This document shows positions 16,495-62,803 of a stretch of 64,000 bases of DNA, in pieces. The stretch is from Candidatus Hydrogenedens sp. (lineage in GTDB: Bacteria; Hydrogenedentota; Hydrogenedentia; Hydrogenedentales; Hydrogenedentaceae): positions 1 to 64,000 of the forward strand of contig JBMFRC010000006.1 of NCBI GenBank assembly GCA_049968235.1, written 5' to 3'. A model generated the notes under the pieces. It had not been told where the DNA came from, did no database searches, and was given only the letters and a program-made list of their open reading frames with translations. A program made the position numbers and the translations under genes. The first letter of the stretch is position 1. The number at the start of each line of letters is the position of its first letter.

Positions 16495-16619
16495 TAATTT
16501 ATTTTATTTTTTTCTGCTCTAATATCAAGCGGTTTTTTGCAAATTACATATCAATAATGTTAAATTTTAATCAACTATTTATTAAATTATTTTATTATTT
16601 ATATTCGTTAGGTTTTTAC

Positions 16620-17267: not shown

Positions 17268-17575
17268 ATACACGCGATTGTGGGCATATAATCTCAGCTT
17301 CATCCCCTGCCAAAGGAGAAGCCGGAAAAACGGGTGAATGGAGGACACAAAGACCTGTTCTAAATAGAGAAAAATGTTTAGCAGTAAAAGCCAATAAAGA
17401 TATATGTTATCAATGCTGGGCGTTTTGTCCCGAATGTGCTATAGAAAGAAAACCGGGAGGTGCCGTAGATTTGACTTATTGTAAAGGTTGTGGAATTTGT
17501 GCACAAATTTGTCCTGCGGACGCTATACAAATGGAAAAAGAATATGACAGTTCAGAACAAAGAAAAAACGATTAA
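17264..17575 (+). CDS. porD: Pyruvate/2-oxoacid:ferredoxin oxidoreductase, delta (ferredoxin-like) subunit
   Basis: 103 aa with two Cys clusters (CYQCWAFCPECA; CKGCGICAQICP) forming a 2x[4Fe-4S] binding domain. It overlaps porG by ATGA. Confidence 0.85.
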   Translation: MNTRDCGHIISASSPAKGEAGKTGEWRTQRPVLNREKCLAVKANKDICYQCWAFCPECAIERKPGGAVDLTYCKGCGICAQICPADAIQMEKEYDSSEQRKND

Positions 17576-18827: not shown

Positions 18828-18836
18828 GAAAGTAGT

Positions 18837-19743: not shown

Positions 19744-21042
19744 TTATATTGTTTTATTCACCCCACAACATTTCTTAAATTTCTTTCCACTCCCACAGGG
19801 GCATAAATCATTCGGGCTAATATTGAGAAGGGAATTTACTTTTTGCTTTGAACGAATCTCATTCATAATATTTGCAGGTGCCTGCCCTTTACGAAGTTGG
19901 TTAGCCATATATTGCATATAGGCTTCGGTATGTTTGAAGAAATGAATATATCCTTTGCATAAATAGTTCTGCTTTGCATCTTCACCCGGAAGGCTTATAA
20001 AACGATGTTTTGGACAACCTCCATTACAAACAAAGAGATACTTACACCTCCGACATTTATTTGTTAAGTGCGATTTTTCTACTGCAAAATTATTCTGGAA
20101 TTCTGAATTTATCATTTCAGAGAGTGATGTTTCTAAAATATTTCCAAGATAATATTCAGGATATACAAAATGGTCACAGGAATATACATTTCCATTAGAT
20201 TCTAAGATAATTGCTTTTCCACAATTTTTACTATGAACACACAAAGGAGGTTCTATACCCATCCAACCTGCAAGGGTTATATCAAACATCTGTACAAATA
20301 TTTTTCCTACATCCTCCCGAACCCACTCATCAAAAACGGCATTAAGAAAATACCCCCAGTGTTCCGGTAATAATGTCCAATCCGTTGTTTTCGCTTCTTC
20401 GTTCCCCGGATGAACCAGTTTTAACCCATCAGAACGACAATTCCCTATTCTTTCTACAATAGGAATAAATTGCAAGTATTGACTTCCTATTGTTTTTAAG
20501 AATTTATATATTTCTTTTCCTCTCATCCAATTTCTTCGATGAATACAAGTAAGTGTATTAAATTCTACACCCGCTTCTTTTAATAATTGAATTACCTCTA
20601 CTACTTTATTAAATGTTCCATGTCCATTACTATCTATTCTGAACGAATTGTGTATTTCTTCAGGTCCATCGATAGAGATACCCACTAAAAAGTGATTATC
20701 CCTTAGAAAATTTATCCAATTTTCATCTAATAATGTTCCATTTGTTTGTAGCGTATTCAATATTTTTTTAGAACCTTTATACTTTCCCTGTAATTCAATA
20801 ACTTTTTTAAAGAACGGAAGTCCTGCCAGAGTGGGCTCTCCTCCCTGCCACCCAAAAATAATTTCTTCAGCAGGATTATTTTTAATATAGTCTTCTATAT
20901 AATGGTTGAGGACATCATCTGTCATTATTAATTGTTTTGTAAAAATATTCTTCTTTTCGTAATAAAAACAATAGATACATCTTAAATTACAAGCAGGACC
21001 CGCAGGCTTTGCCATTACATGAAAAGGAACTTTTTTTTCCAT
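19744..21042 (-). CDS. Radical SAM / SPASM-domain maturase-like enzyme (anSME family) with C-terminal SEC-C motif
   Basis: CNLRCIYC (CxxxCxxC) lies near the N-terminus. SPASM-type C-terminal Cys clusters are present (CxxxxxC...CRRCKYLFVCNGGCP). The extreme C-terminus is CPCGSGKKFKKCCG, a SEC-C metal-binding motif. Confidence 0.8.
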   Translation of the reverse strand: MEKKVPFHVMAKPAGPACNLRCIYCFYYEKKNIFTKQLIMTDDVLNHYIEDYIKNNPAEEIIFGWQGGEPTLAGLPFFKKVIELQGKYKGSKKILNTLQTNGTLLDENWINFLRDNHFLVGISIDGPEEIHNSFRIDSNGHGTFNKVVEVIQLLKEAGVEFNTLTCIHRRNWMRGKEIYKFLKTIGSQYLQFIPIVERIGNCRSDGLKLVHPGNEEAKTTDWTLLPEHWGYFLNAVFDEWVREDVGKIFVQMFDITLAGWMGIEPPLCVHSKNCGKAIILESNGNVYSCDHFVYPEYYLGNILETSLSEMINSEFQNNFAVEKSHLTNKCRRCKYLFVCNGGCPKHRFISLPGEDAKQNYLCKGYIHFFKHTEAYMQYMANQLRKGQAPANIMNEIRSKQKVNSLLNISPNDLCPCGSGKKFKKCCGVNKTI

Positions 21043-38206: not shown

Positions 38207-39610
38207 TTATTTTTTTAGTTCTGGCAAACTTGCAGCTGCAATAGATTGTCCTACTCTTCTATTTTTTTCGTCCGGCAATTGGACATTAATTTTTTCATTT
38301 ATCTCAGGAAACTCTGTTTTTAATACTTTTAGACATTCTTCTAACATGATAGGACCTCCATTGCCGGAGGTACACCGTCCTAAAATGAGTACATGCTTTA
38401 TATCATAGAAATCATTGTAATGAGCAAGAGTATATCCCAAATAGGTACCCATAGTTTGCCAAATTTTAATAACTTCGGGATTCCCTTTTTCCAATTCTTC
38501 TTGTATTAGTTTCAATTTTTCTGCATCGGTGATATTTTCAGGAATTTTTATGCCTGCTTTCGGAGCAAGACGAAACACACATTGTTGAGAAAAATAATTG
38601 GCACCTACTCCCCTATCTCCTGACCATTCTTCTACGGGAGCATCGGGATTATAATCCACAGGGGCAAAGGCAAGTTCATTTAACCAATCTGTTATATTCC
38701 CTGCAGTGGTAACATAGCCACCCGCTTCACTGGAACCCATAGCAATTCCTAATACAGCATTGTCACCAATAGACATCGAACCTGCCAATGCTGTAACCTC
38801 TCCATCATTAACAACAACCAGCGGTACTCCCAGTTCTTTTGACATACGATTAAACAATTCATGCACCTCACCAAAACGTTCTTTAGGAACCCCTCTAAAT
38901 AATGATGCTATCATGGCACGATTATTGACATATACTCCAGCAGCACTTCCACCGACAGCATCCAATCTCGGCATTTTTGATGCGGCTGTTTTTATGGCTG
39001 TCATTATTTCATTATAGTGATAGTTGGGGTCTGTCTGTTTACGGGGTTCCCATATTGTCTCTTCGCTATATACCACTTCTCCATCTATGACAGCGGATGC
39101 TTTACGGTCAGAAGCACCTAAATCAAATCCGACACGACAACCATCCATGTGCCTACCCAAACGTTGTGATGTCTCGTTTGCATGAGGGACATCATTTTCC
39201 GATTTACATGGAACTATCGTAAATGGATTTTCATACACATCTTCTCCCATAAATTTATAGTCGAAGGCTCTCGCTCCTTGTAAAGAATAAGTTGCCTCTA
39301 AATAACGAATTAATGGTTTTGGAGCATAAACATATACCTTCCATCCTCCTTTTTGCCATAGTAAAAACTTTAATATTCTTTCTATATAATAAAATCCTGA
39401 TTCAAATAAAGGATGTCCTTCTGGAAATACTTCTGTCTCAAAACAAGATATAGAATTGTTTAACCTTTCTAAAGCAATAATAACTTTTACTGCATCTTTT
39501 GTTTCTTTCACTTTCTTTTTAAATTGGTCGTTTACTAATTTTGGTGGAATAAAACCGGGGTCCATAGGAGGAACTATTTGTGGTTTTACTAACATCCAAT
39601 CCAGATTCAT
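38207..39610 (-). CDS. ASKHA-superfamily sugar-kinase-like protein (ROK-like, lacks Zn Cys motif; ~150 aa N-terminal extension)
   Basis: It has a phosphate-1-like GFDLGAS motif and a VVVNDGEVTALAG motif resembling ROK ENDANAAALGE. No CxCGxxGC motif is present. Confidence 0.45.
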   Translation of the reverse strand: MNLDWMLVKPQIVPPMDPGFIPPKLVNDQFKKKVKETKDAVKVIIALERLNNSISCFETEVFPEGHPLFESGFYYIERILKFLLWQKGGWKVYVYAPKPLIRYLEATYSLQGARAFDYKFMGEDVYENPFTIVPCKSENDVPHANETSQRLGRHMDGCRVGFDLGASDRKASAVIDGEVVYSEETIWEPRKQTDPNYHYNEIMTAIKTAASKMPRLDAVGGSAAGVYVNNRAMIASLFRGVPKERFGEVHELFNRMSKELGVPLVVVNDGEVTALAGSMSIGDNAVLGIAMGSSEAGGYVTTAGNITDWLNELAFAPVDYNPDAPVEEWSGDRGVGANYFSQQCVFRLAPKAGIKIPENITDAEKLKLIQEELEKGNPEVIKIWQTMGTYLGYTLAHYNDFYDIKHVLILGRCTSGNGGPIMLEECLKVLKTEFPEINEKINVQLPDEKNRRVGQSIAAASLPELKK

Positions 39611-42905: not shown

Positions 42906-44324
42906 CTACACAACAAATAAGTTCTTTGTCATTCGATAAAGATAAATAGGAACATATCTTATAAGTGATAAAGGTCGGGGATAAATTTTTAGTAATCTGT
43001 AAATTCTATTTGGCCTTAAAAAGAACTGTCTATTTGCTTTTCGCTGGTAATAGAAAAGAACATCATCAGGTAAGTCAGTAAGATTAATTCTCACACCAGC
43101 AAAATCTATGTTCATATAATCAAAATTCTTCAATTTTTCCGGTTTATTTTGTTTAAGCCACTCAAATAATGGTGTTCCTGGGAAAGGTACCACCGTAAAA
43201 AAACTTGCAGTATGTAACATCGAATTTGTTGCAATATCTATTGTCATTTGAAGTTCTTCTTCTGTTTCTGTCGGGAAACCCATCATACAAAAGCCATTAG
43301 CATATACCCCTTTATTGACCATTATTTCTATTCCTTTTATAAATTTTGGAATATCAAGATTTTTACAGGTAAACTTTTGCATTCGTGGTGAACCTGTTTC
43401 TAAAGCAAAAGAAGACATATAAGTTCCTGCGGAGCATAAAGCCTCCGCAATATCTTCTGTAACTAAATCCCCTCTAATCGCATTGGGAAATGTTAATTTA
43501 ATATTTAATCCTTTTTGTCTCACTAATTCAGAAAATTGTATTACCCTCTGTTTGTTAAAATTAAAATTATCATCAAGAAATTCAAATTCATTAACACCAT
43601 ATTTGTGGTTTAACCATTCAATTTCTTCAATAATTCGTTCAGGTGAACAAAATCGTATCTTTTTCCCAAATATAGAATGACACCACATACACTGGTATGG
43701 ACAACCTCTACTAGTAACTAAACACATATACTTTCTTGGAGGTAAAGGGGTCATAGATTGTAAACCCCAGTATTGCTGTATATTAATTAAATCGTATTCA
43801 GGAAACGGAAGTTTATCCAAATCCGGTTCAACTGGTAATAACCCCGGATTTTCTATAACTTCCTCTGTTTCATCTTTCCATATTATCCCTGAAATATTTT
43901 TAAGATTCTTTTTATGTGGATAACTTTCCACGATTTGCTTAAATGCTATTTCACCTTCTCCTGGCACCACTATATCTAAATGCCTGCAGTCTGAAAAAGC
44001 CTGTACCTTTACAGATGAAGCATGTGGACCACCTAAAACAATCCAACAATTAGGAAGTGATTCTTTTATTTTTTCAGCGATTAGGGGTATCAAACCTGCA
44101 AAAACTGTAGATGATGATAAGCCAACAATATCCGGTAAAAACTGATATATTTCTTTTGTTAGTTCTTTAGGTGTATCATTTTTTACTTTTTGATTGATTA
44201 ATTTTATTTCTACATCTTTAATTTCCCTTTTTAAATAGCCTGCAAGATACATAATTCCCATAGGTGGTGTAGCCAATGGATACATCGGTTTCCTATACCC
44301 CAGATTTATCAATACTATCTTCAT
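42906..44324 (-). CDS. B12-binding-domain radical SAM enzyme (class B rSAM-like), paralogue A
   Basis: 472 aa. It has an N-terminal cobalamin-binding Rossmann-like domain and a CxxxCxxC motif (GCPYQCMWC). Its central ~370 aa are identical to the neighbouring paralogue. Its 80-aa C-terminal tail and 20-aa N-terminus are unique. Confidence 0.8.
   Translation of the reverse strand: MKIVLINLGYRKPMYPLATPPMGIMYLAGYLKREIKDVEIKLINQKVKNDTPKELTKEIYQFLPDIVGLSSSTVFAGLIPLIAEKIKESLPNCWIVLGGPHASSVKVQAFSDCRHLDIVVPGEGEIAFKQIVESYPHKKNLKNISGIIWKDETEEVIENPGLLPVEPDLDKLPFPEYDLINIQQYWGLQSMTPLPPRKYMCLVTSRGCPYQCMWCHSIFGKKIRFCSPERIIEEIEWLNHKYGVNEFEFLDDNFNFNKQRVIQFSELVRQKGLNIKLTFPNAIRGDLVTEDIAEALCSAGTYMSSFALETGSPRMQKFTCKNLDIPKFIKGIEIMVNKGVYANGFCMMGFPTETEEELQMTIDIATNSMLHTASFFTVVPFPGTPLFEWLKQNKPEKLKNFDYMNIDFAGVRINLTDLPDDVLFYYQRKANRQFFLRPNRIYRLLKIYPRPLSLIRYVPIYLYRMTKNLFVV
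43147..44268. repeat. Direct repeat copy 1 (~1.12 kb, virtually identical to 44731..45852)
   Basis: Nucleotide-level identity was observed by eye along the whole core. Only one difference was noticed (CATTCGTGGTG vs CATTCGCGGTG), and it is synonymous. The period is 1584 bp. Confidence 0.9.
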
Positions 44325-44489
44325 TTATTCCTCATAAAGTATTCAATATATTTTATAACATTCTAAATAATATATTACTTCCTGAATAATTAAAATTATA
44401 TGCTTTTTTTTATAATAGTTAAGCACCACTATTTAGAATTGCTTCTTTATATAAGGATATGGTTCTAATATTGTATTACACTTTATGAT

Positions 44490-45914
44490 TTATTTTACAA
44501 TAATTCCTTTCAATAATCGCTGTAATAGCATAGGAAAATACATAGTAAGATGTAATGGATGAGGATAAATTTTGATAATTCTATATATTCTATCAGGTTT
44601 AGAGAAAAACTTTATGTATGCTCTCCGTTGATATTTATAAAATACTTCATCTGGAAGGTCTGTTAAATTAACTTTGATACTCCCATATTCTGCATTATTG
44701 TAATTTATATTTTTAACCTTATTCGGGCGATTTTGTTTAAGCCACTCAAATAATGGTGTTCCTGGGAAAGGTACCACCGTAAAAAAACTTGCAGTATGTA
44801 ACATCGAATTTGTTGCAATATCTATTGTCATTTGAAGTTCTTCTTCTGTTTCTGTCGGGAAACCCATCATACAAAAGCCATTAGCATATACCCCTTTATT
44901 GACCATTATTTCTATTCCTTTTATAAATTTTGGAATATCAAGATTTTTACAGGTAAACTTTTGCATTCGCGGTGAACCTGTTTCTAAAGCAAAAGAAGAC
45001 ATATAAGTTCCTGCGGAGCATAAAGCCTCCGCAATATCTTCTGTAACTAAATCCCCTCTAATCGCATTGGGAAATGTTAATTTAATATTTAATCCTTTTT
45101 GTCTCACTAATTCAGAAAATTGTATTACCCTCTGTTTGTTAAAATTAAAATTATCATCAAGAAATTCAAATTCATTAACACCATATTTGTGGTTTAACCA
45201 TTCAATTTCTTCAATAATTCGTTCAGGTGAACAAAATCGTATCTTTTTCCCAAATATAGAATGACACCACATACACTGGTATGGACAACCTCTACTAGTA
45301 ACTAAACACATATACTTTCTTGGAGGTAAAGGGGTCATAGATTGTAAACCCCAGTATTGCTGTATATTAATTAAATCGTATTCAGGAAACGGAAGTTTAT
45401 CCAAATCCGGTTCAACTGGTAATAACCCCGGATTTTCTATAACTTCCTCTGTTTCATCTTTCCATATTATCCCTGAAATATTTTTAAGATTCTTTTTATG
45501 TGGATAACTTTCCACGATTTGCTTAAATGCTATTTCACCTTCTCCTGGCACCACTATATCTAAATGCCTGCAGTCTGAAAAAGCCTGTACCTTTACAGAT
45601 GAAGCATGTGGACCACCTAAAACAATCCAACAATTAGGAAGTGATTCTTTTATTTTTTCAGCGATTAGGGGTATCAAACCTGCAAAAACTGTAGATGATG
45701 ATAAGCCAACAATATCCGGTAAAAACTGATATATTTCTTTTGTTAGTTCTTTAGGTGTATCATTTTTTACTTTTTGATTGATTAATTTTATTTCTACATC
45801 TTTAATTTCCCTTTTTAAATAGCCTGCAAGATACATAATTCCCATAGGTGGAGATATAACGCGATATAGGAAAGAACTCCTTCCCATATTTACTAATATT
45901 ATCCTACTTTTCAT
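44490..45914 (-). CDS. B12-binding-domain radical SAM enzyme (class B rSAM-like), paralogue B
   Basis: 474 aa with the same core as paralogue A. Its C-terminal tail is divergent (RPNKVKNINYNNAEYGSIKVNL... versus KPEKLKNFDYMNIDFAGVRINL...). Confidence 0.8.
   Translation of the reverse strand: MKSRIILVNMGRSSFLYRVISPPMGIMYLAGYLKREIKDVEIKLINQKVKNDTPKELTKEIYQFLPDIVGLSSSTVFAGLIPLIAEKIKESLPNCWIVLGGPHASSVKVQAFSDCRHLDIVVPGEGEIAFKQIVESYPHKKNLKNISGIIWKDETEEVIENPGLLPVEPDLDKLPFPEYDLINIQQYWGLQSMTPLPPRKYMCLVTSRGCPYQCMWCHSIFGKKIRFCSPERIIEEIEWLNHKYGVNEFEFLDDNFNFNKQRVIQFSELVRQKGLNIKLTFPNAIRGDLVTEDIAEALCSAGTYMSSFALETGSPRMQKFTCKNLDIPKFIKGIEIMVNKGVYANGFCMMGFPTETEEELQMTIDIATNSMLHTASFFTVVPFPGTPLFEWLKQNRPNKVKNINYNNAEYGSIKVNLTDLPDEVFYKYQRRAYIKFFSKPDRIYRIIKIYPHPLHLTMYFPMLLQRLLKGIIVK
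44731..45852. repeat. Direct repeat copy 2 (~1.12 kb)
   Basis: See copy 1. The ORF-track duplicates 43483..43680 and 45067..45264 (identical 65-aa antisense ORFs) are by-products of this repeat. Confidence 0.9.
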
Positions 45915-45956
45915 AATAGAAATAATACTCCCTTATATTTTCCTAATTTTTTACCT

Positions 45957-48032
45957 TTACCTATTTAACAATACTTCTAAACTATCTCCTAAAGGGAAAA
46001 GGCAAGATTTATTCAATTTTTTACAATAATTATATATGTAACTTTTACTCCTATATTCTATCAATGGTTTAATAAATTTTTTTAATACCTCTTTTTCTTT
46101 ATATGCTATGGTAAGGTAATGTTCACAATCATCATTTTTTTTATTCATATAACAAATAATAGATTTCAACAAATATATGTCTCCAAATCGAGGATATTTA
46201 CTCAAAAGGTAATCACACATTTTGTCTGCAATATAATAATGTCCATCTTTTATTAATCCTGAAATTGTATAAATATTAATCCACGATAATATAGGCCAGG
46301 TAGCAATATATTTTTGAAGAATATATAGGTTTTCTCTTTTCGCTTTTTCGTTGTTCGAAACAATACCTATTTCATCCAATAATTTATCATAATTAATATT
46401 GTTTGTATTTATAAGGACATCACAGGTATTTTTTCCCACATTCCTAAAATTTTTTGCAACTTGACCTATATATAAATTATATTGACCCGGGTATACTTTC
46501 CAGTATACATCCAAACTATTATTATTAATACACTCTGTCAACTTAGCAATAGGGTCAGAATTATAAATAGCATATAATGTTATTGGCTCAATAACTATCC
46601 ATATCCTATTTTTTTCGTTTTCATTTAATTTTTCTTTTATTTCTTCCATTGCTCCGAATAAAGTAAAAAAAGATTGATATTTCAGGTCATTCCTTTTTAT
46701 ATAAATCTTATTTATATCCCAGAATGTGGTTGTTCTTTGTCCCAGAATAATGTCATTTAACCCTGCATTCGCCTCTATAAACTCCGTTGCATTTTTATAA
46801 TCCGTTCTATTCTTAAATGATATAAAACTAACACATTGTCCTAAATAAACAGACATTAAAAGAATTGCAAGAAAATATGACAGTATTTTAGGATTAAATT
46901 TAAAGATAATCGCAGAAGATATGATATAAATCAATGGTAAGGCATAGTAGTTATACAAAGGATGGAAAACAGGTTTATGGGTAATAACTACAATACTTAA
47001 TAATGATATAACGGGAACAAGTAAAGATAAAGTAATAAAAACTTCTCCCCTATTTTTTATATCCTTATTTTGTTTTATTTTCCATAAAATACTTAAAATA
47101 TAAATAATTGTTGTTATCACAAAAATTCCAAGAATGAAATAATCGAGAACAAATATTTTTCTTACCAATATACTTAAAATAAGGCTATCTATATTCAGGA
47201 TATTTGTCTTCCATGCAGGGATTAATTCCTCAGATATTCCAACACTATCAAAACCGAATAATCTATAAAATAATACTTTTATTTCAGTCCCTCCTCTACT
47301 GTCTATAACATTAAATAAAAATGGAGACATTTTGATATACCAAATTATCCATGGAATAACAGATAAAATGGACAGCACAGACCACAACATTTTTTTTCTT
47401 AGTAACGGTTTTGGAAAACTAAAAAGAAGTACAGGAATTTGGAACAATGGTGTTAGAACATATATCGCATGGAACCATGGCAAAATCAAATTGGAAATGA
47501 AACTAACAAGACACCACTTCCAGTTTTCTTTCTTATGGCTAAAATACATCCACAATCCTGAAAAAGAAAGAATAGCAAAAAATTGAATAAATGCATAACA
47601 TTTCAGTTCTTGATGAAACCATATATTAAAAGGAGATAAACAGAAAAGTAAACAGGCAAGGAAAGATGCTTTTCTTCCTACCAATAATTTTCCAAGAAAA
47701 TAGGTCGTTACAATTGCTAAAACACCAAAGGTTATGGGTAATACCCTCCATAACCAATCGATTTCTGGAAATAAATTTATCCAGTAATACAGAATAAAAG
47801 CAGAGGCAGGGGATATACCATAATCAGGACTATTGATATATAAAAGTCTAAAATAATCAAGTATATTACAAAATTTCGCATTACCAATGACTACATATTC
47901 ATCAAACCAAACCGATTGTTCATTTAATTTATATAAACGAAATATAAAGGAAAGAAAAATTATAACTATAATATATAATAAATCACTTTTAGTAAATTGT
48001 TCTCTGGCATTTTTAGTTTGATTCGTTTGCAT
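45957..48032 (-). CDS. GT-C fold membrane glycosyltransferase (family 39/83-like, ArnT/PMT-type) with C-terminal TPR-like domain, paralogue 2
   Basis: 691 aa with more than 10 TM helices. The first extracytoplasmic loop carries RLYKLNEQSVWFDEY, an ArnT/PMT-type DE motif. The C-terminal ~150 aa are soluble and helical-repeat-like. Confidence 0.65.
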   Translation of the reverse strand: MQTNQTKNAREQFTKSDLLYIIVIIFLSFIFRLYKLNEQSVWFDEYVVIGNAKFCNILDYFRLLYINSPDYGISPASAFILYYWINLFPEIDWLWRVLPITFGVLAIVTTYFLGKLLVGRKASFLACLLFCLSPFNIWFHQELKCYAFIQFFAILSFSGLWMYFSHKKENWKWCLVSFISNLILPWFHAIYVLTPLFQIPVLLFSFPKPLLRKKMLWSVLSILSVIPWIIWYIKMSPFLFNVIDSRGGTEIKVLFYRLFGFDSVGISEELIPAWKTNILNIDSLILSILVRKIFVLDYFILGIFVITTIIYILSILWKIKQNKDIKNRGEVFITLSLLVPVISLLSIVVITHKPVFHPLYNYYALPLIYIISSAIIFKFNPKILSYFLAILLMSVYLGQCVSFISFKNRTDYKNATEFIEANAGLNDIILGQRTTTFWDINKIYIKRNDLKYQSFFTLFGAMEEIKEKLNENEKNRIWIVIEPITLYAIYNSDPIAKLTECINNNSLDVYWKVYPGQYNLYIGQVAKNFRNVGKNTCDVLINTNNINYDKLLDEIGIVSNNEKAKRENLYILQKYIATWPILSWINIYTISGLIKDGHYYIADKMCDYLLSKYPRFGDIYLLKSIICYMNKKNDDCEHYLTIAYKEKEVLKKFIKPLIEYRSKSYIYNYCKKLNKSCLFPLGDSLEVLLNR

Positions 48033-48036
48033 ATCA

Positions 48037-50130
48037 TTATCTATTTTTCAAAAGAACAGATAGTATGGATTTATTCAATATATGATAGCCCTTTTGTTCT
48101 AATTCTTGAATGAGCAACACATCCTTATCTCCTATTCCAGAGATATTTCCTCCGTTCCACAAGTTTTTATACATATCCTTAAAAATATAATTATTTCTAA
48201 AAATACCCTCTATTATTTTTCGGGATTCATCTTGTTTGTGTTTAGAAAATAAAATTAATCCTTTTAATAATATTACATGATAGAATTCCGGAGATTTATT
48301 TATAAGATAATCACATATTTTCTCTGCAACATCTATATCTCCATTCTGTATCATCGAATTTATAATTAAAATATAATTATATGAATAAAAAGGTTGCCAA
48401 ATAGCGAAGTATCTTTGAAGTATTTCTTTTCTTCGTTGCTTTTCTATCTCATCGTTAACTTTCATTTGAAACTCTTCTATAAGGTTATCATAATCTATTT
48501 CGCCAAAGGGGCAATTTTGAATCTTTTCTTTATTAATATTTTTGTAAGAGTCCTTCTCTATTCTTAAAACATAGAGGTTAAACTTTCCCGGGAAGTGTTT
48601 TATATTCACATTAAAACCATGAGGAGATAAATTCTTTACTAATATAAATGTTGGATCTTTCTTATAAATCCATGTAATTAATGTTGTTTCCATTAATACC
48701 CATATTGAGTTACTAATCTTTTCTTCCTCCAGTGAAAGTGTGTCAACTACTGTATCAGCAATAGCCTGCAAAGAAAATACAGGATTTAATGAGTAGTCAA
48801 CTCTTTTTTTGTATACCTTCCATGTGTCAAAAACATTGGCTCCTAATTGTAGGTCAAGAACGATATCTCCTTTTTTCACATTCTCTTCCATATATGCTAC
48901 TGCCCTTTTATAATCGGGTCTTAAATTAAAATTTATAAAACCTAAACATTGAAAGGTAAATAAAAAAATAATCATTACTAAAAAAGTGGCTTTAATTAGA
49001 TGTTTATCCCATATAAAAATAGAATACGCAATAATAAGGTATAGAAACGCAAAAGCATGATAGAAATATAAAGGTAGAAAAAATGATTTCCCTGTAATAA
49101 CTCTCAAAGTAAAAAAAGGAAGTATAGAAAAGACAAAAGAATAAAGTAGCAAATACTTTTTTATTTCTCCACACTCTTTTCGCAAATTTGGTATATTTTT
49201 TACCAAATATAAACAGAACACAATAAAAAGAAAAATAGTCGATATAAATAATAAATAGTCAATAAATACCCATTTGTTTAATAAATTATCCCATATTGTG
49301 TTTCTAACTATTTCGACTGTATTTGTTTTCCAATACGGTAATAATTCATTAGAAAGACCAACACAATCAATTCCGAATAAACTTGTCACAATAAATTTTA
49401 TATTTAATGATTCCATTTCAGTAAGAGAAAGATTATATGCAGGTGGTTTTATCCAGAATATCCACAAAATGTAAGGAATTAAAACGGCAATATTTGCTAT
49501 TCCACATAAGATAGTGTCCCTAACTTTATTCTGTCTTGTAAACCATATCAACAAAAAAAACTGTATAAATGGAACTGCAAAATATACAGCATGGAACCAG
49601 GGAAGCAATAAATTAGATAGTGTTCCTATAAAAAACCATTTCTTACTTTTGCCACTACTAATGTAATTTAGAAAGGCAAACCATGATAGTAAAGAAAGGA
49701 ATAGTATAAAAGCATATCCTTTCAGTTCCTGGTGAATATAAATGTTAAATGGTGATAATACCATCAATAACCCTGCAAGAAAGCCAACCTTCCAGTCTTT
49801 TACCCATTTCCCAAGAAAATAAAGAAGTACTATAGACAGAACTCCAAAGCAGATAGGTAAAAGCCTCCATAGCCAGATATTATCCGGAAAAATATGTATC
49901 CAAAAATAATATAGAACTAACCCTCCCGGTGAAATCCCATATTCAGGGACATTTATAAACAGTAATTTAATATTTGTCCACAAATCACATATTTTGATAT
50001 TTGCTATATATACATATTCTTCATGCCATATAGACTGTTCTGTAATACGGTATAATCGCAAAGCAAAAGCAATAAGAATTAGAATAATTAGGAGAAATAT
50101 ATCTCTGTATTTGGAAATGTAATCATTCAA
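48037..50130 (-). CDS. GT-C fold membrane glycosyltransferase (family 39/83-like, ArnT/PMT-type) with C-terminal TPR-like domain, paralogue 1
   Basis: 697 aa. It carries RLYRITEQSIWHEEY and is roughly 40-50% identical to the downstream paralogue throughout. The two genes are 4 bp apart. Confidence 0.65.
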   Translation of the reverse strand: MNDYISKYRDIFLLIILILIAFALRLYRITEQSIWHEEYVYIANIKICDLWTNIKLLFINVPEYGISPGGLVLYYFWIHIFPDNIWLWRLLPICFGVLSIVLLYFLGKWVKDWKVGFLAGLLMVLSPFNIYIHQELKGYAFILFLSLLSWFAFLNYISSGKSKKWFFIGTLSNLLLPWFHAVYFAVPFIQFFLLIWFTRQNKVRDTILCGIANIAVLIPYILWIFWIKPPAYNLSLTEMESLNIKFIVTSLFGIDCVGLSNELLPYWKTNTVEIVRNTIWDNLLNKWVFIDYLLFISTIFLFIVFCLYLVKNIPNLRKECGEIKKYLLLYSFVFSILPFFTLRVITGKSFFLPLYFYHAFAFLYLIIAYSIFIWDKHLIKATFLVMIIFLFTFQCLGFINFNLRPDYKRAVAYMEENVKKGDIVLDLQLGANVFDTWKVYKKRVDYSLNPVFSLQAIADTVVDTLSLEEEKISNSIWVLMETTLITWIYKKDPTFILVKNLSPHGFNVNIKHFPGKFNLYVLRIEKDSYKNINKEKIQNCPFGEIDYDNLIEEFQMKVNDEIEKQRRKEILQRYFAIWQPFYSYNYILIINSMIQNGDIDVAEKICDYLINKSPEFYHVILLKGLILFSKHKQDESRKIIEGIFRNNYIFKDMYKNLWNGGNISGIGDKDVLLIQELEQKGYHILNKSILSVLLKNR

Positions 50131-50188
50131 TTCAAAAGGACTCCTTTGTAAAAATTTATAGCATATATTGTCAAATTAAATGTATATT

Positions 50189-51463
50189 TTAACCAATTTG
50201 AGCGAGGATTTTTGCCAATCTTCTTTCTGATTGTATGGCTGAACGGACAGTATGATAGTTAATTTTCCACGCATGAGCCATGTAATCCCATAACAGATTA
50301 TTATTTTCATCAAATAAGGGGAACCATTCCCCAACTGCATGATTAATCACATAATCCATAACAAAACGATGTACATTTTCATATGCATCAAAGTATTTTT
50401 CATCACCAAATAATAAATAAGCATCTAACATAGCCACAAGTGTTTCTGCCTGTTGCCAAAATTCTTTATTCCTTTCCCGTGCAGGGCCATCATTAGGTCC
50501 TTCACAATATACACCCCCTTTTTCCCAATCAATTCCGTATTTTAAACAATGGTCAAACATCTTCTTCATTTTTTCTTTATAAGGTTCTACATCTTCTCCA
50601 ATAATATTCAATGTATGATTTAACAACCAACAAAATTCTACATTATGACCGAAACTGGTATTATTTAATGGCCTCCCTTCCGGGTCATCTGCATCACGGT
50701 CAGAACCCCAAACATTTTTAAATATGATAGCCCGTAAAGGTTTCCAGTCAAAACTGAATTGTGCCATCCCTGTTCCATATTCCGGATGAACCATTTTATC
50801 GTAAATTAGTTTAATTACATTTAAGGTGTCCTGCTTATGTTTAAATGCACCTGTTGCTTCATACAAATTTGTAAAGGCTTCCATCAAATGCATGTGGACA
50901 TCAAATGACTTTCTATCACCACCATACACCCCTGGCTTTTTAGGCGTCCAATCTTTCTCAAAAAATTCGCCAAATCCTCCATGTGCAATATCTACAGCCT
51001 GAGCCTTAATTGTTCTCCATGTTTCTTCAGCAAGTTCAAGGGCTTCTTCATCACCTGATGCCATCGCATACTCACTCAAGCAATAAATACCAAAGGATTG
51101 ACCATACATAATTTTACTTGGGTCAACCGGTGTTCCATCTTTTTCCGTTATCCATATCCAGCCTCTATATTGATTATCCCAAAAATGTTTCTTTAAGAAT
51201 TCTACGCCTTGTTCTGCTATTTTCAGGTATTTCCCATCTCCTAAATTGGCTCGATGTGCAGATGAATAAGTATAAATCATCCGTGCCTGACAAATAAGTG
51301 TTTTTTTTGTCTCGCCTGTTGGTCGCCCTTCACGGTCAAGGTATGTTAAAAAGCCACCATATTCTTCATCAACACCATGCGTTTCCCAGAATGGAAGTAG
51401 TTCATTAAATAAGTGGTTTTGCATTTCTTTCAAAAGTTTTTCCACGCGTTCTTTTGTAACCAT
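50189..51463 (-). CDS. AGE-family (N-acylglucosamine 2-epimerase / cellobiose-2-epimerase / sugar isomerase-like) (alpha/alpha)6-barrel enzyme
   Basis: 424 aa with an N-terminus (LPFWETHGVDEEYGGF...QARMIYTYSSAH) typical of the AGE superfamily. It is the first gene of the minus-strand cluster. Confidence 0.7.
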   Translation of the reverse strand: MVTKERVEKLLKEMQNHLFNELLPFWETHGVDEEYGGFLTYLDREGRPTGETKKTLICQARMIYTYSSAHRANLGDGKYLKIAEQGVEFLKKHFWDNQYRGWIWITEKDGTPVDPSKIMYGQSFGIYCLSEYAMASGDEEALELAEETWRTIKAQAVDIAHGGFGEFFEKDWTPKKPGVYGGDRKSFDVHMHLMEAFTNLYEATGAFKHKQDTLNVIKLIYDKMVHPEYGTGMAQFSFDWKPLRAIIFKNVWGSDRDADDPEGRPLNNTSFGHNVEFCWLLNHTLNIIGEDVEPYKEKMKKMFDHCLKYGIDWEKGGVYCEGPNDGPARERNKEFWQQAETLVAMLDAYLLFGDEKYFDAYENVHRFVMDYVINHAVGEWFPLFDENNNLLWDYMAHAWKINYHTVRSAIQSERRLAKILAQIG

Positions 51464-51667: not shown

Positions 51668-51744
51668 GTTCCCGTAGCTCAATTGGATAGAGCGCTTGGC
51701 TACGGACCAAGAGGCTGGGGGTTCAACTCCCTCCGGGAACGCCA
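51668..51744 (+). tRNA. tRNA-Arg (anticodon ACG)
   Basis: Cloverleaf folded by hand. Acceptor GTTCCCG/CGGGAAC. D-arm GCTC-AATTGGATA-GAGC. Anticodon stem CTTGG/CCAAG with loop CTACGGA. T-arm GGGGG-TTCAACT-CCCTC. Discriminator G and an encoded CCA. Confidence 0.88.
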
Positions 51745-58318: not shown

Positions 58319-59758
58319 GTGTCATTTTCCTCAAAAAAAACTACTGTTCTTATTATAACTTATTATGTTATTTCTTTTTTTTGTATTTTCCCCTTGTTCG
58401 GAGAAAATATTCCATGTTCGGATATATACAATGTCAAAGAACTTGGTGCCAGGGGTGATGGGATTACTGATGATACAGAGACTATCCAGAAGGCTCTAAA
58501 TATTGCTGGTGAAAAAAAAGGAGGCATAGTTTTTCTTCCTATAGGTTCTTATCTTATAAAAGGAAACCTAATTGTCCCAGAAAATGTAACACTTGAAGGA
58601 ATATGGCGTTCTCCATTTCGCGGTGAATCATCTAAAGCAGGTAGTGTTTTGCTTGCAGTTTCAGGCAAATGCGAAACAGATGGAATTCCCTTGATTCGTG
58701 TTAATACAAGTTCAACATTAAAAGGATTTGCAGTTTTTTACCCTGAACAAACAAGAACAGACCCTCCTATTCCCTATCCGTGGACAATTCAATGCAATGG
58801 TCCAGCAGATGATGTCTCATTGATAGACTTAACACTTATTAATCCCTATAAAGCCATAGACTTTGGAACATTTCCCGCAGGTAGACACAAAATAAAAAAT
58901 ATACATGCATATCCATTATATCGTGGGCTGTATATCAATCAGTGTTATGATGTCGGCAGAATTGAAGATATTCACTTTTGGCCCTTCTGGGATTTAAATC
59001 CCAATAGTCCTCTCTGGAAATTTACTCAAAGAGAAGGTATTGCTTTTATCATAGGAAAAACTGATGGTGAAATGGGACATAACCTTTTCAGTATCTTTTA
59101 TTCTATTGGTATGCAATTCATTGCAGGACCTATATATGATGAAAATAAAAATGTAATAAAAAATCTACCAGGCAGTGGAACTTATACACATTGTTATATG
59201 GATATTACACCTTGTGCGGTAAAAGTGGATAGTGCAATGGAAAATGCAGGCATTACCTTTCTAAACTCATCTTTTATGGCTAAAGTTGTAGTAAGTCCTT
59301 CCAATCGGGGTCCTGTAAAATTTGTCGGTTGCGGTTTCTGGGGAACTAAAGATTCCGATTATCAGGTTTTAACAGAAGGACAGGGAAGTGTTACCCTCGA
59401 TGCCTGTCATTTTAGTGGTTGGGACCGTATCTCAAAAGGGCTTCCATGTATCAACGCTAATAATAGATATTTAATCATATCAAATTGTGAGTTTATCGGT
59501 ACTTCTATAGAGAATTCCATCATCCAATTAGGACCTCGTCTTCGTTCCGGAATTATCACTTCCAATATAAGTCACGGAAGTTTTGAAATAACAAACAACA
59601 CATTAAAATCCGCTCAAATTATCATTAAAGATAATTTAGCAACACCTAAAACAAACTTCGTTTTAGATTGGACACTAGTAGGTCCTTTTCCAAATTCACA
59701 AATAATACATCAACAGATACAGAAATTTCTCGAGAAGGATTTAATAAAGACTTTTTAG
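58319..59758 (+). CDS. Secreted right-handed beta-helix protein (pectate-lyase superfamily / GH28-GH55-like or AlgG-like)
   Basis: GTG start with an N-terminal hydrophobic leader. It has the canonical N-terminal motif of this fold (VKELGARGDGITDDTETIQKALN). The downstream ORF overlaps it in another frame. Confidence 0.6.
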   Translation: MSFSSKKTTVLIITYYVISFFCIFPLFGENIPCSDIYNVKELGARGDGITDDTETIQKALNIAGEKKGGIVFLPIGSYLIKGNLIVPENVTLEGIWRSPFRGESSKAGSVLLAVSGKCETDGIPLIRVNTSSTLKGFAVFYPEQTRTDPPIPYPWTIQCNGPADDVSLIDLTLINPYKAIDFGTFPAGRHKIKNIHAYPLYRGLYINQCYDVGRIEDIHFWPFWDLNPNSPLWKFTQREGIAFIIGKTDGEMGHNLFSIFYSIGMQFIAGPIYDENKNVIKNLPGSGTYTHCYMDITPCAVKVDSAMENAGITFLNSSFMAKVVVSPSNRGPVKFVGCGFWGTKDSDYQVLTEGQGSVTLDACHFSGWDRISKGLPCINANNRYLIISNCEFIGTSIENSIIQLGPRLRSGIITSNISHGSFEITNNTLKSAQIIIKDNLATPKTNFVLDWTLVGPFPNSQIIHQQIQKFLEKDLIKTF

Positions 59759-60216
59759 AAATTATAGGAGGAGAAACAAAAACAGAGTTGCTGTCAAATA
59801 AAGATATAAAAAAACTTAAAGAAATATATAAAGATATAAAAATTGTTAATTATAATTCCTTACATACAAAGTCTGTAAAGATTAAACTTCATGAAATATT
59901 TGGTATGGAACCCGCTACCGCTTATGCCATTACTTATATTTATTCAAAAGAGAAACAAAATGTATTGCTCGAATTAGGGATGAATGATGGCGGAAAAGTT
60001 TTCTTAAATGGAAAAGAGGTTTATTCAAGATTTTCAAGAGACGGGATGACTTGTGAACCTGGCACCGATACTTTTACATCTGAATTAATGAAAGATTATA
60101 ATACTCTCCTTCTGAAAATCGCAAATTCAGGTGGAAAGTGGGAATTTATGGTAGAAATATATCCCGATATAAAAGAAGACATATCAATTACAACACAAAA
60201 ACCGATAAATAATTAA
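59668..60216 (+). CDS. Hypothetical protein (possible frameshifted C-terminal domain of the preceding beta-helix protein)
   Basis: TTG start inside the preceding gene with a 91-nt overlap. Coding-like sequence runs through the whole overlap in this frame. The C-terminal half looks like a compact beta-rich domain. Confidence 0.4.
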   Translation: MDTSRSFSKFTNNTSTDTEISREGFNKDFLEIIGGETKTELLSNKDIKKLKEIYKDIKIVNYNSLHTKSVKIKLHEIFGMEPATAYAITYIYSKEKQNVLLELGMNDGGKVFLNGKEVYSRFSRDGMTCEPGTDTFTSELMKDYNTLLLKIANSGGKWEFMVEIYPDIKEDISITTQKPINN

Positions 60217-60244: not shown

Positions 60245-61717
60245 ATGCTGTTCAACTCTGTTCATTTTGCTATATTTTTTCCCATAGTAGTTACTTTATA
60301 TTTTTTATTGCCTCATAAATTCCGTTGGCTTTTACTACTTATTGCCAGTTATTACTTCTATATGGCATGGATACCTATTTATGTTCTACTTTTACTTGCT
60401 TCAACAATTGTGGATTATATTAGTGGATTGTTATTTGAAAAAACAAAGATAGAATATAAACGCAAATTAATTCTAATTTTTAGCCTTTTAATAAATTTGG
60501 GGATACTTTTTACTTTCAAATATTACAATTTTTTTATGGATAGCGTCGAAAAACTATCTATTTATCTAAATATCCCTATAAATATTCATTACTCTTCCCT
60601 TCTATTACCCATTGGCATTTCTTTCTATACATTTCAAACTTTAGCATATACCATTGATGTATATCGTCGTAAAATAAAACCAGAAAAACATTTCGGCATT
60701 TTCGCTCTCTATGTTACCTTCTTCCCGCAATTAGTGGCTGGTCCCATTGAGAGAGCAGATACATTAATTCCTCAACTTAAACAATATCATAATTTTGATA
60801 CAAAACGAGTCACTGATGGATTAAAACTTATGGCATGGGGACTTTTCAAAAAAGTCGTTGTTGCAGACCGGTTAGGGATGATGTCCGCTTATGTTTTTGC
60901 AAATCCCCAATCACATGATGGGATGGGGCTTCTCTTTGCTATGGTTTTTTCCAGTTGGCAAATATATTGTGATTTTTCGGGCTATTCTGACATTGCAGTA
61001 GGTTCTGCAAAAGTATTAGGAATTAATTTAATACAAAATTTTGAACGACCTTATTTTTCCCGTTCCTTCCCTGAATTATGGAGAAGATGGCATATTTCGC
61101 TCATGAATTGGTTTCGAGATTATGTTTTCTACCCTCTGGGAGGCAGTCGTTATGGTGTCCTCAATACATGCAGGAATTTAATTATCGTTTTTACATTAAG
61201 CGGTGTATGGCACGGTGCAAATTGGACCTATATATTCTGGGGTTTCCTGATGGGACTATGTCTGGTCATATCTCTCCTGACCCGTGATATACGGAAAATT
61301 ATTGTTGAAAAAATTGGCTTAACGCATTTCCCTAAAATCCATCAGGGAATACAAATGTTAATAACCTACTCCATTTTCTTATTCTTTGGTGTTCCATTCC
61401 GATCAGAAAAAATAGGCGATGTATTTTATATATGGTCGCACCTATTAACAGGTTGGACACATCCTACTCATGGATTGGATTTTGATGATTTTGTCGTAAG
61501 TTTAGGTATGCCAACAGAACAGGAGTTCCATGTAGCAATAATATCTCTCTTATTTTTGATAATAGTAGAAGCATTTCAAGCATATGGAATCTCTTTACGA
61601 GAAAAACTTGAACAGCGGAATATAGCAATACGATGGGCTTGCTACTATATTTTTCTTTTTTTAATTGCATTTTATGGTGTATGGAACAGTTCACCTTTTA
61701 TTTATTTCCAATTTTAA
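60245..61717 (+). CDS. MBOAT-family membrane-bound O-acyltransferase (AlgI/DltB-like)
   Basis: 490 aa with about 10 TM helices. The AlgI/DltB-like N-terminus (MLFNSVHFAIFFPIVV) and the MBOAT His region (RRWHISLMNWFRDYVFYPLGG) are present. Confidence 0.85.
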   Translation: MLFNSVHFAIFFPIVVTLYFLLPHKFRWLLLLIASYYFYMAWIPIYVLLLLASTIVDYISGLLFEKTKIEYKRKLILIFSLLINLGILFTFKYYNFFMDSVEKLSIYLNIPINIHYSSLLLPIGISFYTFQTLAYTIDVYRRKIKPEKHFGIFALYVTFFPQLVAGPIERADTLIPQLKQYHNFDTKRVTDGLKLMAWGLFKKVVVADRLGMMSAYVFANPQSHDGMGLLFAMVFSSWQIYCDFSGYSDIAVGSAKVLGINLIQNFERPYFSRSFPELWRRWHISLMNWFRDYVFYPLGGSRYGVLNTCRNLIIVFTLSGVWHGANWTYIFWGFLMGLCLVISLLTRDIRKIIVEKIGLTHFPKIHQGIQMLITYSIFLFFGVPFRSEKIGDVFYIWSHLLTGWTHPTHGLDFDDFVVSLGMPTEQEFHVAIISLLFLIIVEAFQAYGISLREKLEQRNIAIRWACYYIFLFLIAFYGVWNSSPFIYFQF

Positions 61718-61726
61718 GGGATACTT

Positions 61727-62803
61727 ATGAATACGTTTAAATATAAAGAATTACTTCCCATTATTCTTTTAATTCCCTTCTTCCTGTTTTTTATTTCTGT
61801 TAATATTTTAATTGACCCTTCCGGACTTCTGAGGAAAAGTCAGGAAAAACAAATAGCACAATGGCTCAATGATGGCTATGGTGTCATAAATGCAATCAAT
61901 GTAGATTACCGTAAAATTGTTAAAGAACGAATCAGATTAATGGAAACAATGCCGGATATTATAGTCATGGGGTCAAGCCGTGCCATGATTATTGATTCAT
62001 CCTTTTTCCCCAATCGACATCTTTTGAATTGTAGTCTTCCTTCTGCAAATTTAGAAGATATTATTGCAAATTATCAGGTACTTTACGAAGCCAATAAACT
62101 GCCTGCAAAACTTATTTTATGTCCCGATCTACATTACTTTAATGCTTATGCAAAAAGTAATTTTCATCTCTTTCAAGAGTTCGATAACGCTATGGAACGT
62201 ATGGAAATAGTTCAAAATACCACATTAAAAGATTTTATTATAAAATGGATAGACCCAAGATATTTTCAGATACTTTCCCCGGGGTATTTTCAAGAATCTA
62301 TTCGATTCCTCCCTGCATGGGTAGTGGGTAAAATTCCTCGCCCCCAACCTATTGAACATTATGAAACAGAAGAAAAAGTCATCCGTCCCGATGGGAGTAT
62401 CATCTACGAATCCTCCCGACGTCAAAAAACACTTCAGGAAATCGAATTTAAAGCAGAACGGTATGCCTTCAAACATCCCGAAGGATTAATCAATTACAGA
62501 AATTTAGACCCAACTCGAAAACAAATTTTTGAAGAGTTTTTAAAGATGGTAAAGAAAGATAGCATTGAAATAGAAGTGATTCTTATTCCTATTCATCCTC
62601 GCTCCTATGAGATTCTTACTCAAAATAAAATATATAAAATCATCATTGATGTGGAAAAATATATGAGAACGGTATTTCATTCCTTAGGCATTCCTGCTTA
62701 TGGTAGTTTCGACGCCACAAAATGCGGGTGTTATTCAATAGATTTTTATGATGCAGTACACGCAAAGCCTGAAGCCATTAAAAGAATTTTGTCCTTTTCA
62801 TAA
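61727..62803 (+). CDS. AlgJ/DltD-like single-pass partner protein of the MBOAT (putative SGNH-like O-acyltransferase component)
   Basis: 358 aa with an N-terminal TM anchor and a candidate nucleophile block (VMGSSRA) near residue 85. It lies 10 nt downstream of the MBOAT gene, the canonical MBOAT-partner arrangement. Confidence 0.45.
   Translation: MNTFKYKELLPIILLIPFFLFFISVNILIDPSGLLRKSQEKQIAQWLNDGYGVINAINVDYRKIVKERIRLMETMPDIIVMGSSRAMIIDSSFFPNRHLLNCSLPSANLEDIIANYQVLYEANKLPAKLILCPDLHYFNAYAKSNFHLFQEFDNAMERMEIVQNTTLKDFIIKWIDPRYFQILSPGYFQESIRFLPAWVVGKIPRPQPIEHYETEEKVIRPDGSIIYESSRRQKTLQEIEFKAERYAFKHPEGLINYRNLDPTRKQIFEEFLKMVKKDSIEIEVILIPIHPRSYEILTQNKIYKIIIDVEKYMRTVFHSLGIPAYGSFDATKCGCYSIDFYDAVHAKPEAIKRILSFS

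Follow-up and report, generated by a model that had tools for sequence, protein, structure and literature searches.

Two membrane glycosyltransferases of the GT-C superfamily lie directly upstream of two class-B radical S-adenosylmethionine (SAM) enzymes in a 64,000-nucleotide stretch of DNA from Candidatus Hydrogenedens (phylum Hydrogenedentota), which we call the window. Comparison of related loci identifies the conserved unit as a two-component partnership of radical SAM enzyme (rSAM) and GT-C, not as the five-gene set in which the pair is found here, and the two components are very probably functionally linked in some way. Our preferred reading, to which we assign a probability of roughly 0.4, is that the rSAM alters a sugar while it is linked to polyprenyl phosphate and that the GT-C afterward transfers this sugar.

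The five genes form a run of co-directional, minus-strand open reading frames (ORFs) at 42906-51463, as described in a first-pass annotation of this DNA, and all of them are present where that annotation had placed them. The run starts with a sugar 2-epimerase of the AGE family, of the mannose/mannobiose/cellobiose 2-epimerase type (51463-50189, 424 amino acids), followed by the glycosyltransferases GT-C1 (50130-48037, 697 amino acids, TTG start) and GT-C2 (48032-45957, 691 amino acids) and the class-B, B12-binding-domain enzymes rSAM-A (45914-44490, 474 amino acids) and rSAM-B (44324-42906, 472 amino acids). The gaps between them, in order, are 58, 4, 42, and 165 nucleotides (nt). The family calls made at first pass (AGE, GT-C, and B12-type rSAM) were borne out by Pfam, by AlphaFold (AF2) models searched with Foldseek, by hhalign, and by a CPYQCMWC motif. 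A scan of the cluster for promoters and terminators returned counts at the level of shuffled sequence and was uninformative.

Conservation of the rSAM/GT-C linkage

The gene order epimerase, GT-C, GT-C, rSAM, with or without a second rSAM, recurs within Hydrogenedens. That order alone is weak evidence, because the neighboring IorAB, ROK kinase, and 467-amino-acid genes are syntenic too. Outside Hydrogenedens, rSAM orthologs with 45-51% identity adjoin PMT_2-type GT-C genes. At a Phycisphaerae locus (L006; the loci we compared carry L numbers), one rSAM is followed by two PMT_2 genes with a start/stop overlap, and L008 has the alternating order rSAM-PMT_2-rSAM-PMT_2 with overlapping stop and start codons. 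PMT_2-type GT-C genes also stand beside the rSAM ortholog in Nitrospirales (L012) and Calditrichaeota (L018), as does a GT-C gene in Omnitrophota (L014), a weak case. In Desulfosudaceae (L011), a PMT-like gene overlaps the start of the rSAM gene, and a Dpy19 protein with tetratricopeptide repeats (TPR) is present as well. The start/stop overlaps, found at L006, L008, L011, and L099, suggest translational coupling.

Scanning metagenomes with the C-terminal region of the rSAM, which is specific to the family, added a further 80 loci. Flanking sequence of at least 2.5 kb on each side was available for 45 orthologous rSAM genes; a GT-C lies no more than 3 kb away from 28 of them and no more than 500 nt away from 20. 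GT-C genes make up 32 of 123 genes at most 1 kb from an orthologous rSAM, compared with 3 of 96 genes at a distance of at least 4 kb (odds ratio, 11; Fisher p = 1.5e-6), so that the suspicion of a nonrandom linkage, raised at first pass, holds far beyond Hydrogenedens. Unsupervised clustering of neighbors recovered GT-C as the sole dominant recurrent family (32-34 of 69 loci); next came a TAT-signal GFO/IDH/MocA oxidoreductase (9 loci) and non-B12 rSAMs (6 loci). More distant class-B rSAMs show a weaker association, with 19 of 81 having a GT-C among the matches listed (contigs of Chloroflexota, Bacteroidales, and DPANN included); those with GT-C neighbors occur on Chloroflexota and DPANN contigs.

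The first-pass annotation had inferred two parallel pairs from the 2+2 arrangement, and this paired stoichiometry did not survive comparison. A related genome has two GT-C genes and one rSAM, a Phycisphaerae contig has one rSAM and two GT-C genes, and 2+2, 3+3, and rSAM-only arrangements also occur. Tandem arrays of three to six class-B paralogs of the same orthogroup are found at L105 (353-11566) and at L010, L013, L162, and L163; the rSAM-only arrays suggest multistep or multisite modification pathways. No rSAM-GT-C gene fusion was found among 174 loci. Viewed from the GT-C side, three distant family members, on contigs too short (3-9 kb) to judge linkage, are accompanied by tandem GT-C arrays and non-B12 rSAMs, with no class-B rSAM.

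A third, divergently oriented GT-C and rSAM pair is present in the sister genome L001 (17365-21051; also L089, 3360-7046). Its GT-C (698 amino acids) is 34% identical to GT-C1, and its rSAM (524 amino acids) belongs to a different class-B subfamily, scoring 178 bits against the orthogroup model. A gene for a sulfatase-type membrane enzyme follows the pair, and the block occupies the position of IorAB in the window. Across phyla, the rSAM is highly conserved (mean column identity, 64%), whereas the GT-C partners can be aligned only over their N-terminal catalytic module and elsewhere carry very different periplasmic domains, up to PMT_2+TPR proteins of 1426 amino acids.

The radical SAM enzymes

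The window rSAMs match the Pfam B12-binding (PF02310, E = 4e-14) and Radical_SAM (PF04055, E = 1e-17) domains, and each contains the sequence CPYQCMWC, a CxxxCxxC [4Fe-4S] motif (rSAM-A, 45264-45287; rSAM-B, 43680-43703; both minus strand). The AF2 model (pLDDT 92.3) has the class-B arrangement of an N-terminal B12-binding Rossmann domain and a TIM barrel with the CxxxCxxC motif. Its best 17 Foldseek matches are all class-B enzymes (E = 1e-21 to 1e-17), with MgmA/QCMT first and AprD4 second, and TsrM, OxsB, CysS, and TokK also among them. The enzyme is probably soluble and cytoplasmic and would require SAM, a reductant, and probably cobalamin.

Neither rSAM reached any curated NCBIfam rSAM equivalog (ApyD, BchE, HpnJ, HpnR, PhpK, KedN5, MgmA, or the ladderane/lipid rSAMs). 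The best score was 165 bits to ApyD (cutoff, 750), followed by 139 bits to BchE (cutoff, 481) and 122 bits to HpnJ (cutoff, 578); the HpnJ model aligned over nearly its full length (E = 2.4e-35). Scores for the lipid families were 70-120 bits, against cutoffs of 360-650. Pfam detected neither an RRE nor a SPASM domain. The last 60 residues are amphipathic and basic, with 11 K/R compared with 3-4 D/E.

Gene conversion between rSAM-A and rSAM-B

The two rSAM proteins are 89% identical, but this identity is very unevenly distributed. A 1122-nt core of rSAM-A (44730-45851, minus strand) matches the corresponding core of rSAM-B (43146-44267, minus strand) with a single mismatch, C at 44970 versus T at 43386. 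Outside the core, over the first ~57 nt and the last ~240 nt, the genes are only ~50-67% identical. In the sister genomes L001 and L003, by comparison, the A and B copies show ~60-80% DNA identity over their whole length. The rSAM-A core of the window is 90% identical to the B copy of L001 and 72% identical to its A copy, while the C-terminal 80 amino acids of rSAM-A are still A-type (84% identical to L001 A).

This pattern indicates an old paralog pair in which the catalytic core of A has recently been overwritten with B sequence, with the rSAM-B core as the donor, leaving the termini alone distinct. The two genes had been described simply as paralogs; the pair is indeed old, but with cores that differ at one base they are not ordinary paralogs. 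By this comparison rSAM-A is a chimera, with an A-type N terminus of 20 amino acids and an A-type C terminus of 80 amino acids around a B-type core, and the replacement left the ORF intact. The single rSAM of the more distant Hydrogenedentota locus L005 (P0040) looks B-type by its C-terminal sequence, which suggests that the B type is probably ancestral in the Hydrogenedens lineage.

An exact hybrid of the two genes, with the N terminus of A, the shared core, and the C terminus of B, occurs as the database protein P0024, from an NCBI metagenome-assembled genome of Candidatus Hydrogenedens sp. with contigs of at most 7.7 kb. Either the short-read assembly collapsed the repeat there, or a sister strain has truly undergone a deletion by recombination. 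We considered an assembly artifact as the source of the near-identical cores in the window and judged it unlikely, because the sister copies differ by ~20-40%, one mismatch separates the cores here, and the P0024 hybrid fits a real repeat. Judged from their sequences, the catalytic cores of rSAM-A and rSAM-B are interchangeable, so whatever distinguishes the enzymes would have to reside in the first 20 and last 80 residues. The converted pair can thus be regarded as a natural domain swap that points to these terminal segments as specificity determinants.

The GT-C glycosyltransferases

GT-C2, 35% identical to GT-C1, is an old paralog with the same architecture and has orthologs in L001, L003, and L005. 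The two genes have the lowest G+C content in the cluster (27-29% over 46001-50000, compared with ~33% for the window). Neither protein reaches the gathering threshold of Pfam PMT_2 (PF13231; 21.7 bits for GT-C1 and 19.7 bits for GT-C2, threshold 26.1), although 17 of 20 family members match PMT_2 at E <= 0.01 (best, 1.7e-8). By hhalign, the family aligns to the bona fide PMT_2 rSAM partners of other phyla with 99.1% probability over the N-terminal 214 columns. On these profile scores, the window GT-C proteins are divergent relatives of PMT_2 and not formal members.

The AF2 model of GT-C1 (pLDDT 80.9, pTM 0.81) has the GT-C superfamily fold (GT-C_A; PMT_2, ArnT, and STT3-like). Its best 36 PDB matches in Foldseek are all GT-C enzymes (probability 1.00, TM ~0.4), including STT3/AglB/PglB, ALG9/12, Pmt4, DPY19, ArnT, and AftA/B. 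The model contains ~11 transmembrane (TM) helices, an alpha/beta domain (residues 405-530), and a helical-repeat tail (residues 547-695). Directly after the first TM helix, where the first periplasmic loop begins, GT-C1 carries WHEEY (W35-Y39; 50014-50028, minus strand) and GT-C2 carries WFDEY (47895-47909, minus strand), so that the ArnT/PMT-type first-loop motif lies where it had been placed at first pass. All of 16-20 homologs have E38, at least 90% of them have E or D at position 37, and E37/E38 of GT-C1 form a putative catalytic acidic pair.

With an 11-TM topology and the N terminus inside, the invariant polar residues E37/E38, Q134-E135-x-K137, W178/H180, and R404-P-D406-Y407 would all be on the periplasmic face. 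The same topology would make periplasmic a conserved, low-confidence loop (residues 228-286) that ends in a WKTN motif, as well as the alpha/beta domain and the helical-repeat tail. The C-terminal domain had been called TPR-like: the helical repeat is there, but its TPR signals are weak (OGT TPR, E = 0.5; Foldseek probability 0.97 over 137 columns; Pfam TPR_17 in 1 of 20 family members), and the alpha/beta domain precedes it. A contact between the GT-C tail and the rSAM C-terminal tail, also proposed at first pass, is topologically unlikely, because the C-terminal domain of the GT-C is predicted to be periplasmic and the rSAM cytoplasmic.

The epimerase and flanking genes

The epimerase is a member of the AGE superfamily, with a full-length match to Pfam PF07221 (E = 4.9e-52; 177.7 bits, cutoff 23.4) and to a solved AGE fold, PDB 8H1K, titled "N-acylglucosamine 2-epimerase" (E = 1.9e-139, residues 3-420, most aligned positions identical). 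In a PDB sequence search, cellobiose and mannose 2-epimerases were nearer to it than true GlcNAc 2-epimerases, and its relatives are named mannobiose or mannose 2-epimerase by JGI. It scored below the cutoff for the NCBIfam equivalogs EpiA, AGE, and mannose isomerase. Although the first-pass annotation had counted the epimerase as part of the cluster, it is joined to the GT-C/rSAM module only in Hydrogenedens-type contigs; orthologs in other Hydrogenedentota (70-74%) sit elsewhere with different neighbors. We therefore rejected it as a core part of the module, and it is probably a bystander.

Upstream of the five genes are a tRNA-Arg(ACG) on the plus strand (51668-51744) and a divergent clpX-lon-leuS block. 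The minus strand continues downstream with iorA, iorB, a ROK kinase gene, and a gene for a 467-amino-acid protein, with mpl further along. IorAB, the ROK kinase, and the 467-amino-acid gene were rejected as module parts, since they keep company with the module only in Hydrogenedens, and L001 lacks them downstream of its module. That the epimerase, IorAB, and ROK kinase travel with the module in Hydrogenedens alone probably reflects synteny.

The 467-amino-acid protein (38207-39610, minus strand) has no family match except for a sub-threshold ROK-like stretch, and its gene lies directly 3' of the ROK kinase gene in every Hydrogenedentota contig examined, the distant L005 included. In L005, iorA (16291-17881) is present as two ORFs of 271 and 262 amino acids; the window iorA is a single gene of 542 amino acids.

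A proposed donor-tailoring pathway and its alternatives

Building on the gene content, the folds, the conserved linkage, and the gene conversion, we infer a substrate, a reaction, a topology, and an acceptor as follows. A GT2 synthase encoded elsewhere in the genome would load a sugar onto the polyprenyl phosphate carrier. Anchored to the membrane through its C-terminal tail, which is basic and amphipathic, the rSAM would then alter the lipid-linked sugar by radical chemistry, most likely by C-methylation, with deoxygenation or rearrangement as further possibilities. The altered donor would be flipped across the membrane, and the GT-C would move the sugar to a periplasmic acceptor chosen by its variable C-terminal domain. 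The modified sugar would be of one kind, delivered by GT-C1 to one acceptor and by GT-C2 to another, and rSAM-A and rSAM-B would perform the same chemistry, because their catalytic cores appear interchangeable.

Several observations are consistent with this pathway. With the rSAM in the cytoplasm and the active site and acceptor domain of the GT-C in the periplasm, the simplest coupling would be a shared membrane-embedded intermediate. The contrast between the conserved rSAM and the variable periplasmic domains of the GT-C partners suggests a universal donor and lineage-specific acceptors, and the basic amphipathic tail of the rSAM is as expected of interfacial membrane binding. GT2 genes adjoin the rSAMs in L007 and L011, with best, weak matches to the polyprenyl-phosphate sugar synthases AglJ, PpgS, and ArnC; NDP-heptose genes occur in L141; and occasional rSAM neighbors are lipid-carrier enzymes (Wzy_C, an IspH-UbiA fusion, and sulfatase-type transferases). 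Tailoring of a lipid-linked donor on the cytoplasmic face before flipping is established for ArnD in the Arn pathway and for DprE1/E2 in the synthesis of decaprenyl-phospho-arabinose (DPA). The nearest NCBIfam and structural relatives of the rSAM include enzymes of sugars or lipid-linked sugars, AprD4 and HpnJ, which suggests that sugars, even one joined to a membrane lipid, are within reach of this enzyme class.

Other observations weigh against the pathway. No polyprenyl-phosphate sugar synthase (GT2) or flippase is encoded within the 64-kb window, and GT2 is not recurrent among rSAM neighbors overall. About one-third of the orthologous rSAMs with good flanks lack a GT-C closer than 3 kb, and some loci are rSAM-only arrays with no GT-C in view. 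The GT-C topology was read from helix positions and charge rather than computed from coordinates. AprD4, which shares the fold of the window rSAMs, is not known to use B12. Finally, the top NCBIfam match, ApyD, is an enzyme of ribosomally synthesized and posttranslationally modified peptides (RiPPs) and the top fold match, MgmA, is a protein methylase, which leaves room for a peptide substrate.

That last point leads to an alternative that we consider unlikely, in which the rSAM modifies a cytoplasmic protein or peptide (RiPP- or MCR-type) and the GT-C, binding it through the TPR-like periplasmic domain, glycosylates it after export. Besides ApyD and MgmA/QCMT, a protein glutamine C-methylase, this view draws on the GT-C partners of other phyla, some with large TPR arrays like those of the eukaryotic protein O-mannosyltransferases TMTC and others Dpy19-like or TMEM260-like. 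The ApyD and MgmA matches are, however, all far under the family cutoffs, and the rSAM lacks the Pfam RRE and SPASM domains. Neither a small conserved ORF nor a gene for a candidate substrate was found alongside the module, and a search for a precursor-peptide ORF in the 165-nt spacer between rSAM-A and rSAM-B and across the cluster found only chance-sized ORFs. Moreover, conservation across phyla is far higher in the rSAM than in the periplasmic domains of the GT-C, which would be unexpected if both recognized one lineage-specific protein.

Less likely still is a lipid substrate: the rSAM would modify, by methylation or in some other way, not the sugar but the polyprenyl carrier or a different membrane lipid, and the GT-C would use or handle that lipid. 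Full-length similarity to the hopanoid enzymes HpnJ and HpnR and to the "lipid biosynthesis B12-binding/radical SAM protein" is in keeping with such a role, as are the basic amphipathic tail, the resemblance of the tandem rSAM arrays to multisite lipid methylation, and lipid-enzyme neighbors (the IspH-UbiA fusion at one locus; LPG-synthase-TM, Wzy_C, and sulfatase-type lipid-headgroup enzymes at others). These neighbors are single cases, whereas GT-C recurs, and the scores for the lipid families are well short of their cutoffs. We regard as improbable that the genes have no functional link here and reflect lineage synteny, with the epimerase serving in the catabolism of mannan or sugars and no process shared between the rSAMs and the GT-Cs. 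The whole Hydrogenedens stretch, including IorAB, the ROK kinase, and the 467-amino-acid gene, is indeed syntenic, and the epimerase is widespread, highly conserved, and found in many other contexts. Yet the rSAM/GT-C adjacency is statistically enriched and recurs in unrelated phyla with differing gene orders and flanks, and the third pair of L001 has an rSAM of another subfamily; for the rSAM/GT-C pair, the absence of a link is already largely refuted.

Relation to known systems

The rSAM and the GT-C are, on profile and structure searches, members of their superfamilies but of no characterized family within either. NCBIfam, Pfam, and PDB sequence searches gave superfamily-level matches only, and no curated NCBIfam model or solved structure assigned either protein to a characterized pathway. 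It had been stated at first pass that no described pathway was known to link the two families in paired stoichiometry, and our full-text literature searches, mostly outside subscription journals, agreed with this in finding no paper on an rSAM/GT-C pairing; the words "lipid" and "glycosyl" are absent from the main text of a 2026 review of B12-rSAM enzymes. Glycosylation from a lipid-linked sugar is a known scheme, and the type of tailoring enzyme would be its new part.

The closest parallel in logic is with systems that transfer a sugar from a polyprenyl phosphate. In the Arn pathway (ArnC, ArnD, and ArnT), which modifies lipid A with aminoarabinose, an undecaprenyl-phosphate sugar is tailored on the cytoplasmic face by ArnD deformylation, flipped, and transferred in the periplasm by the GT-C enzyme ArnT, which ranks 23-24 among the fold matches of GT-C1. 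Here the tailoring enzyme would be a B12-type rSAM instead of a deformylase, and the similarity to ArnT is at the level of fold only: the GT-C has no ArnT match in NCBIfam, and no Arn-type genes (ArnA/B/C/D/E/F) are present in the window. In the three-component systems of the Gtr, CsbB/YfhO, and GtlA/GtlB type, made up of a GT2 polyprenyl-phosphate sugar synthase, a flippase, and a GT-C, the GT-C likewise moves a monosaccharide from a polyprenyl-phosphate donor, and the GT2 genes beside the rSAMs of L007 and L011 recall this arrangement. Those systems lack an rSAM, however, and in the window no GT2 or flippase is linked to the module. The Arn, Gtr/CsbB-YfhO, and DPA systems thus follow similar logic, and none has a radical SAM enzyme.

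Other comparisons concern the individual enzymes. In the hopanoid HpnI/HpnK/HpnJ system, HpnJ is a B12-domain rSAM thought to rearrange a sugar on a membrane lipid; the window rSAM falls far below the HpnJ cutoff and is not its ortholog, there are no hopanoid genes, and the partner is a GT-C rather than a GT2. The class-B rSAMs of aminoglycoside synthesis (the C-methylases GenK and GenD1 and the diol dehydratase AprD4) share the fold and the use of radical chemistry on unactivated sugar carbons, but they act on soluble pseudo-oligosaccharides, belong to antibiotic clusters, have no membrane glycosyltransferase partner, and are less than 20% identical. The protein mannosyltransferases PMT, TMTC, TMEM260, and DPY19 share the GT-C module and the acidic pair of the first loop, and their repeat domains select protein acceptors; PMT_2+TPR and Dpy19+TPR architectures occur among the rSAM partners of other phyla. 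The Hydrogenedens GT-Cs differ in falling below the PMT_2 threshold and in their distinct alpha/beta domain and short helical-repeat tail, and no PMT, TMTC, TMEM260, or DPY19 member is known to work with a radical SAM enzyme.

Other features of the window

At 58319-60216, a gene resembling pectate lyase and RHGA epimerase is split into overlapping ORFs of 479 and 182 amino acids by a frameshift near 59650-59755. The ortholog in L003 is one intact gene of 638 amino acids, and the split gene is either a pseudogene or a sequencing error. Following it at 60245-62803 are genes for an MBOAT membrane O-acyltransferase (490 amino acids) and a 358-amino-acid protein with one TM helix and no Pfam match, a pair that resembles two-gene units of the AlgI/DltB type for the O-acylation of a surface polymer. 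Two large divergent ORFs (5562-7460, minus strand, 632 amino acids with three hydrophobic segments; 7521-9680, plus strand, 719 amino acids with a signal-like N terminus) lie in a low-G+C stretch (29%), have no Pfam match, and are not GT-C-like by hidden Markov models. A radical SAM/SPASM protein with a C-terminal SEC-C motif (19744-21042, minus strand, 432 amino acids) is unrelated to the class-B pair, and its gene adjoins a four-subunit 2-oxoacid:ferredoxin oxidoreductase operon (16557-19742).

Implications

GT-C enzymes assemble or decorate the majority of surface glycoconjugates in bacteria, and class-B rSAM enzymes catalyze some of the hardest known C-H functionalizations. We tentatively suggest that the two together represent a widespread, undescribed class of envelope glycosylation, bacterial and possibly also DPANN archaeal, in which a B12-dependent rSAM would add a C-methyl group or another radical modification to a polyprenyl-phosphate sugar and dedicated GT-Cs would place it on lineage-specific periplasmic proteins or glycans. 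If this is true, the partnership would define a new way of making modified surface sugars, one used by large anaerobic lineages that are mostly uncultured, namely Hydrogenedentota, Phycisphaerae, Nitrospirota, Desulfobacterota, Calditrichota, and probably Omnitrophota. It would provide a functional handle on thousands of class-B rSAMs labeled "BchE" (anaerobic Mg-protoporphyrin cyclase) or "YgiQ" by JGI and on orphan PMT_2/TPR membrane proteins, and radical chemistry on a membrane-anchored sugar would be new enzymology.

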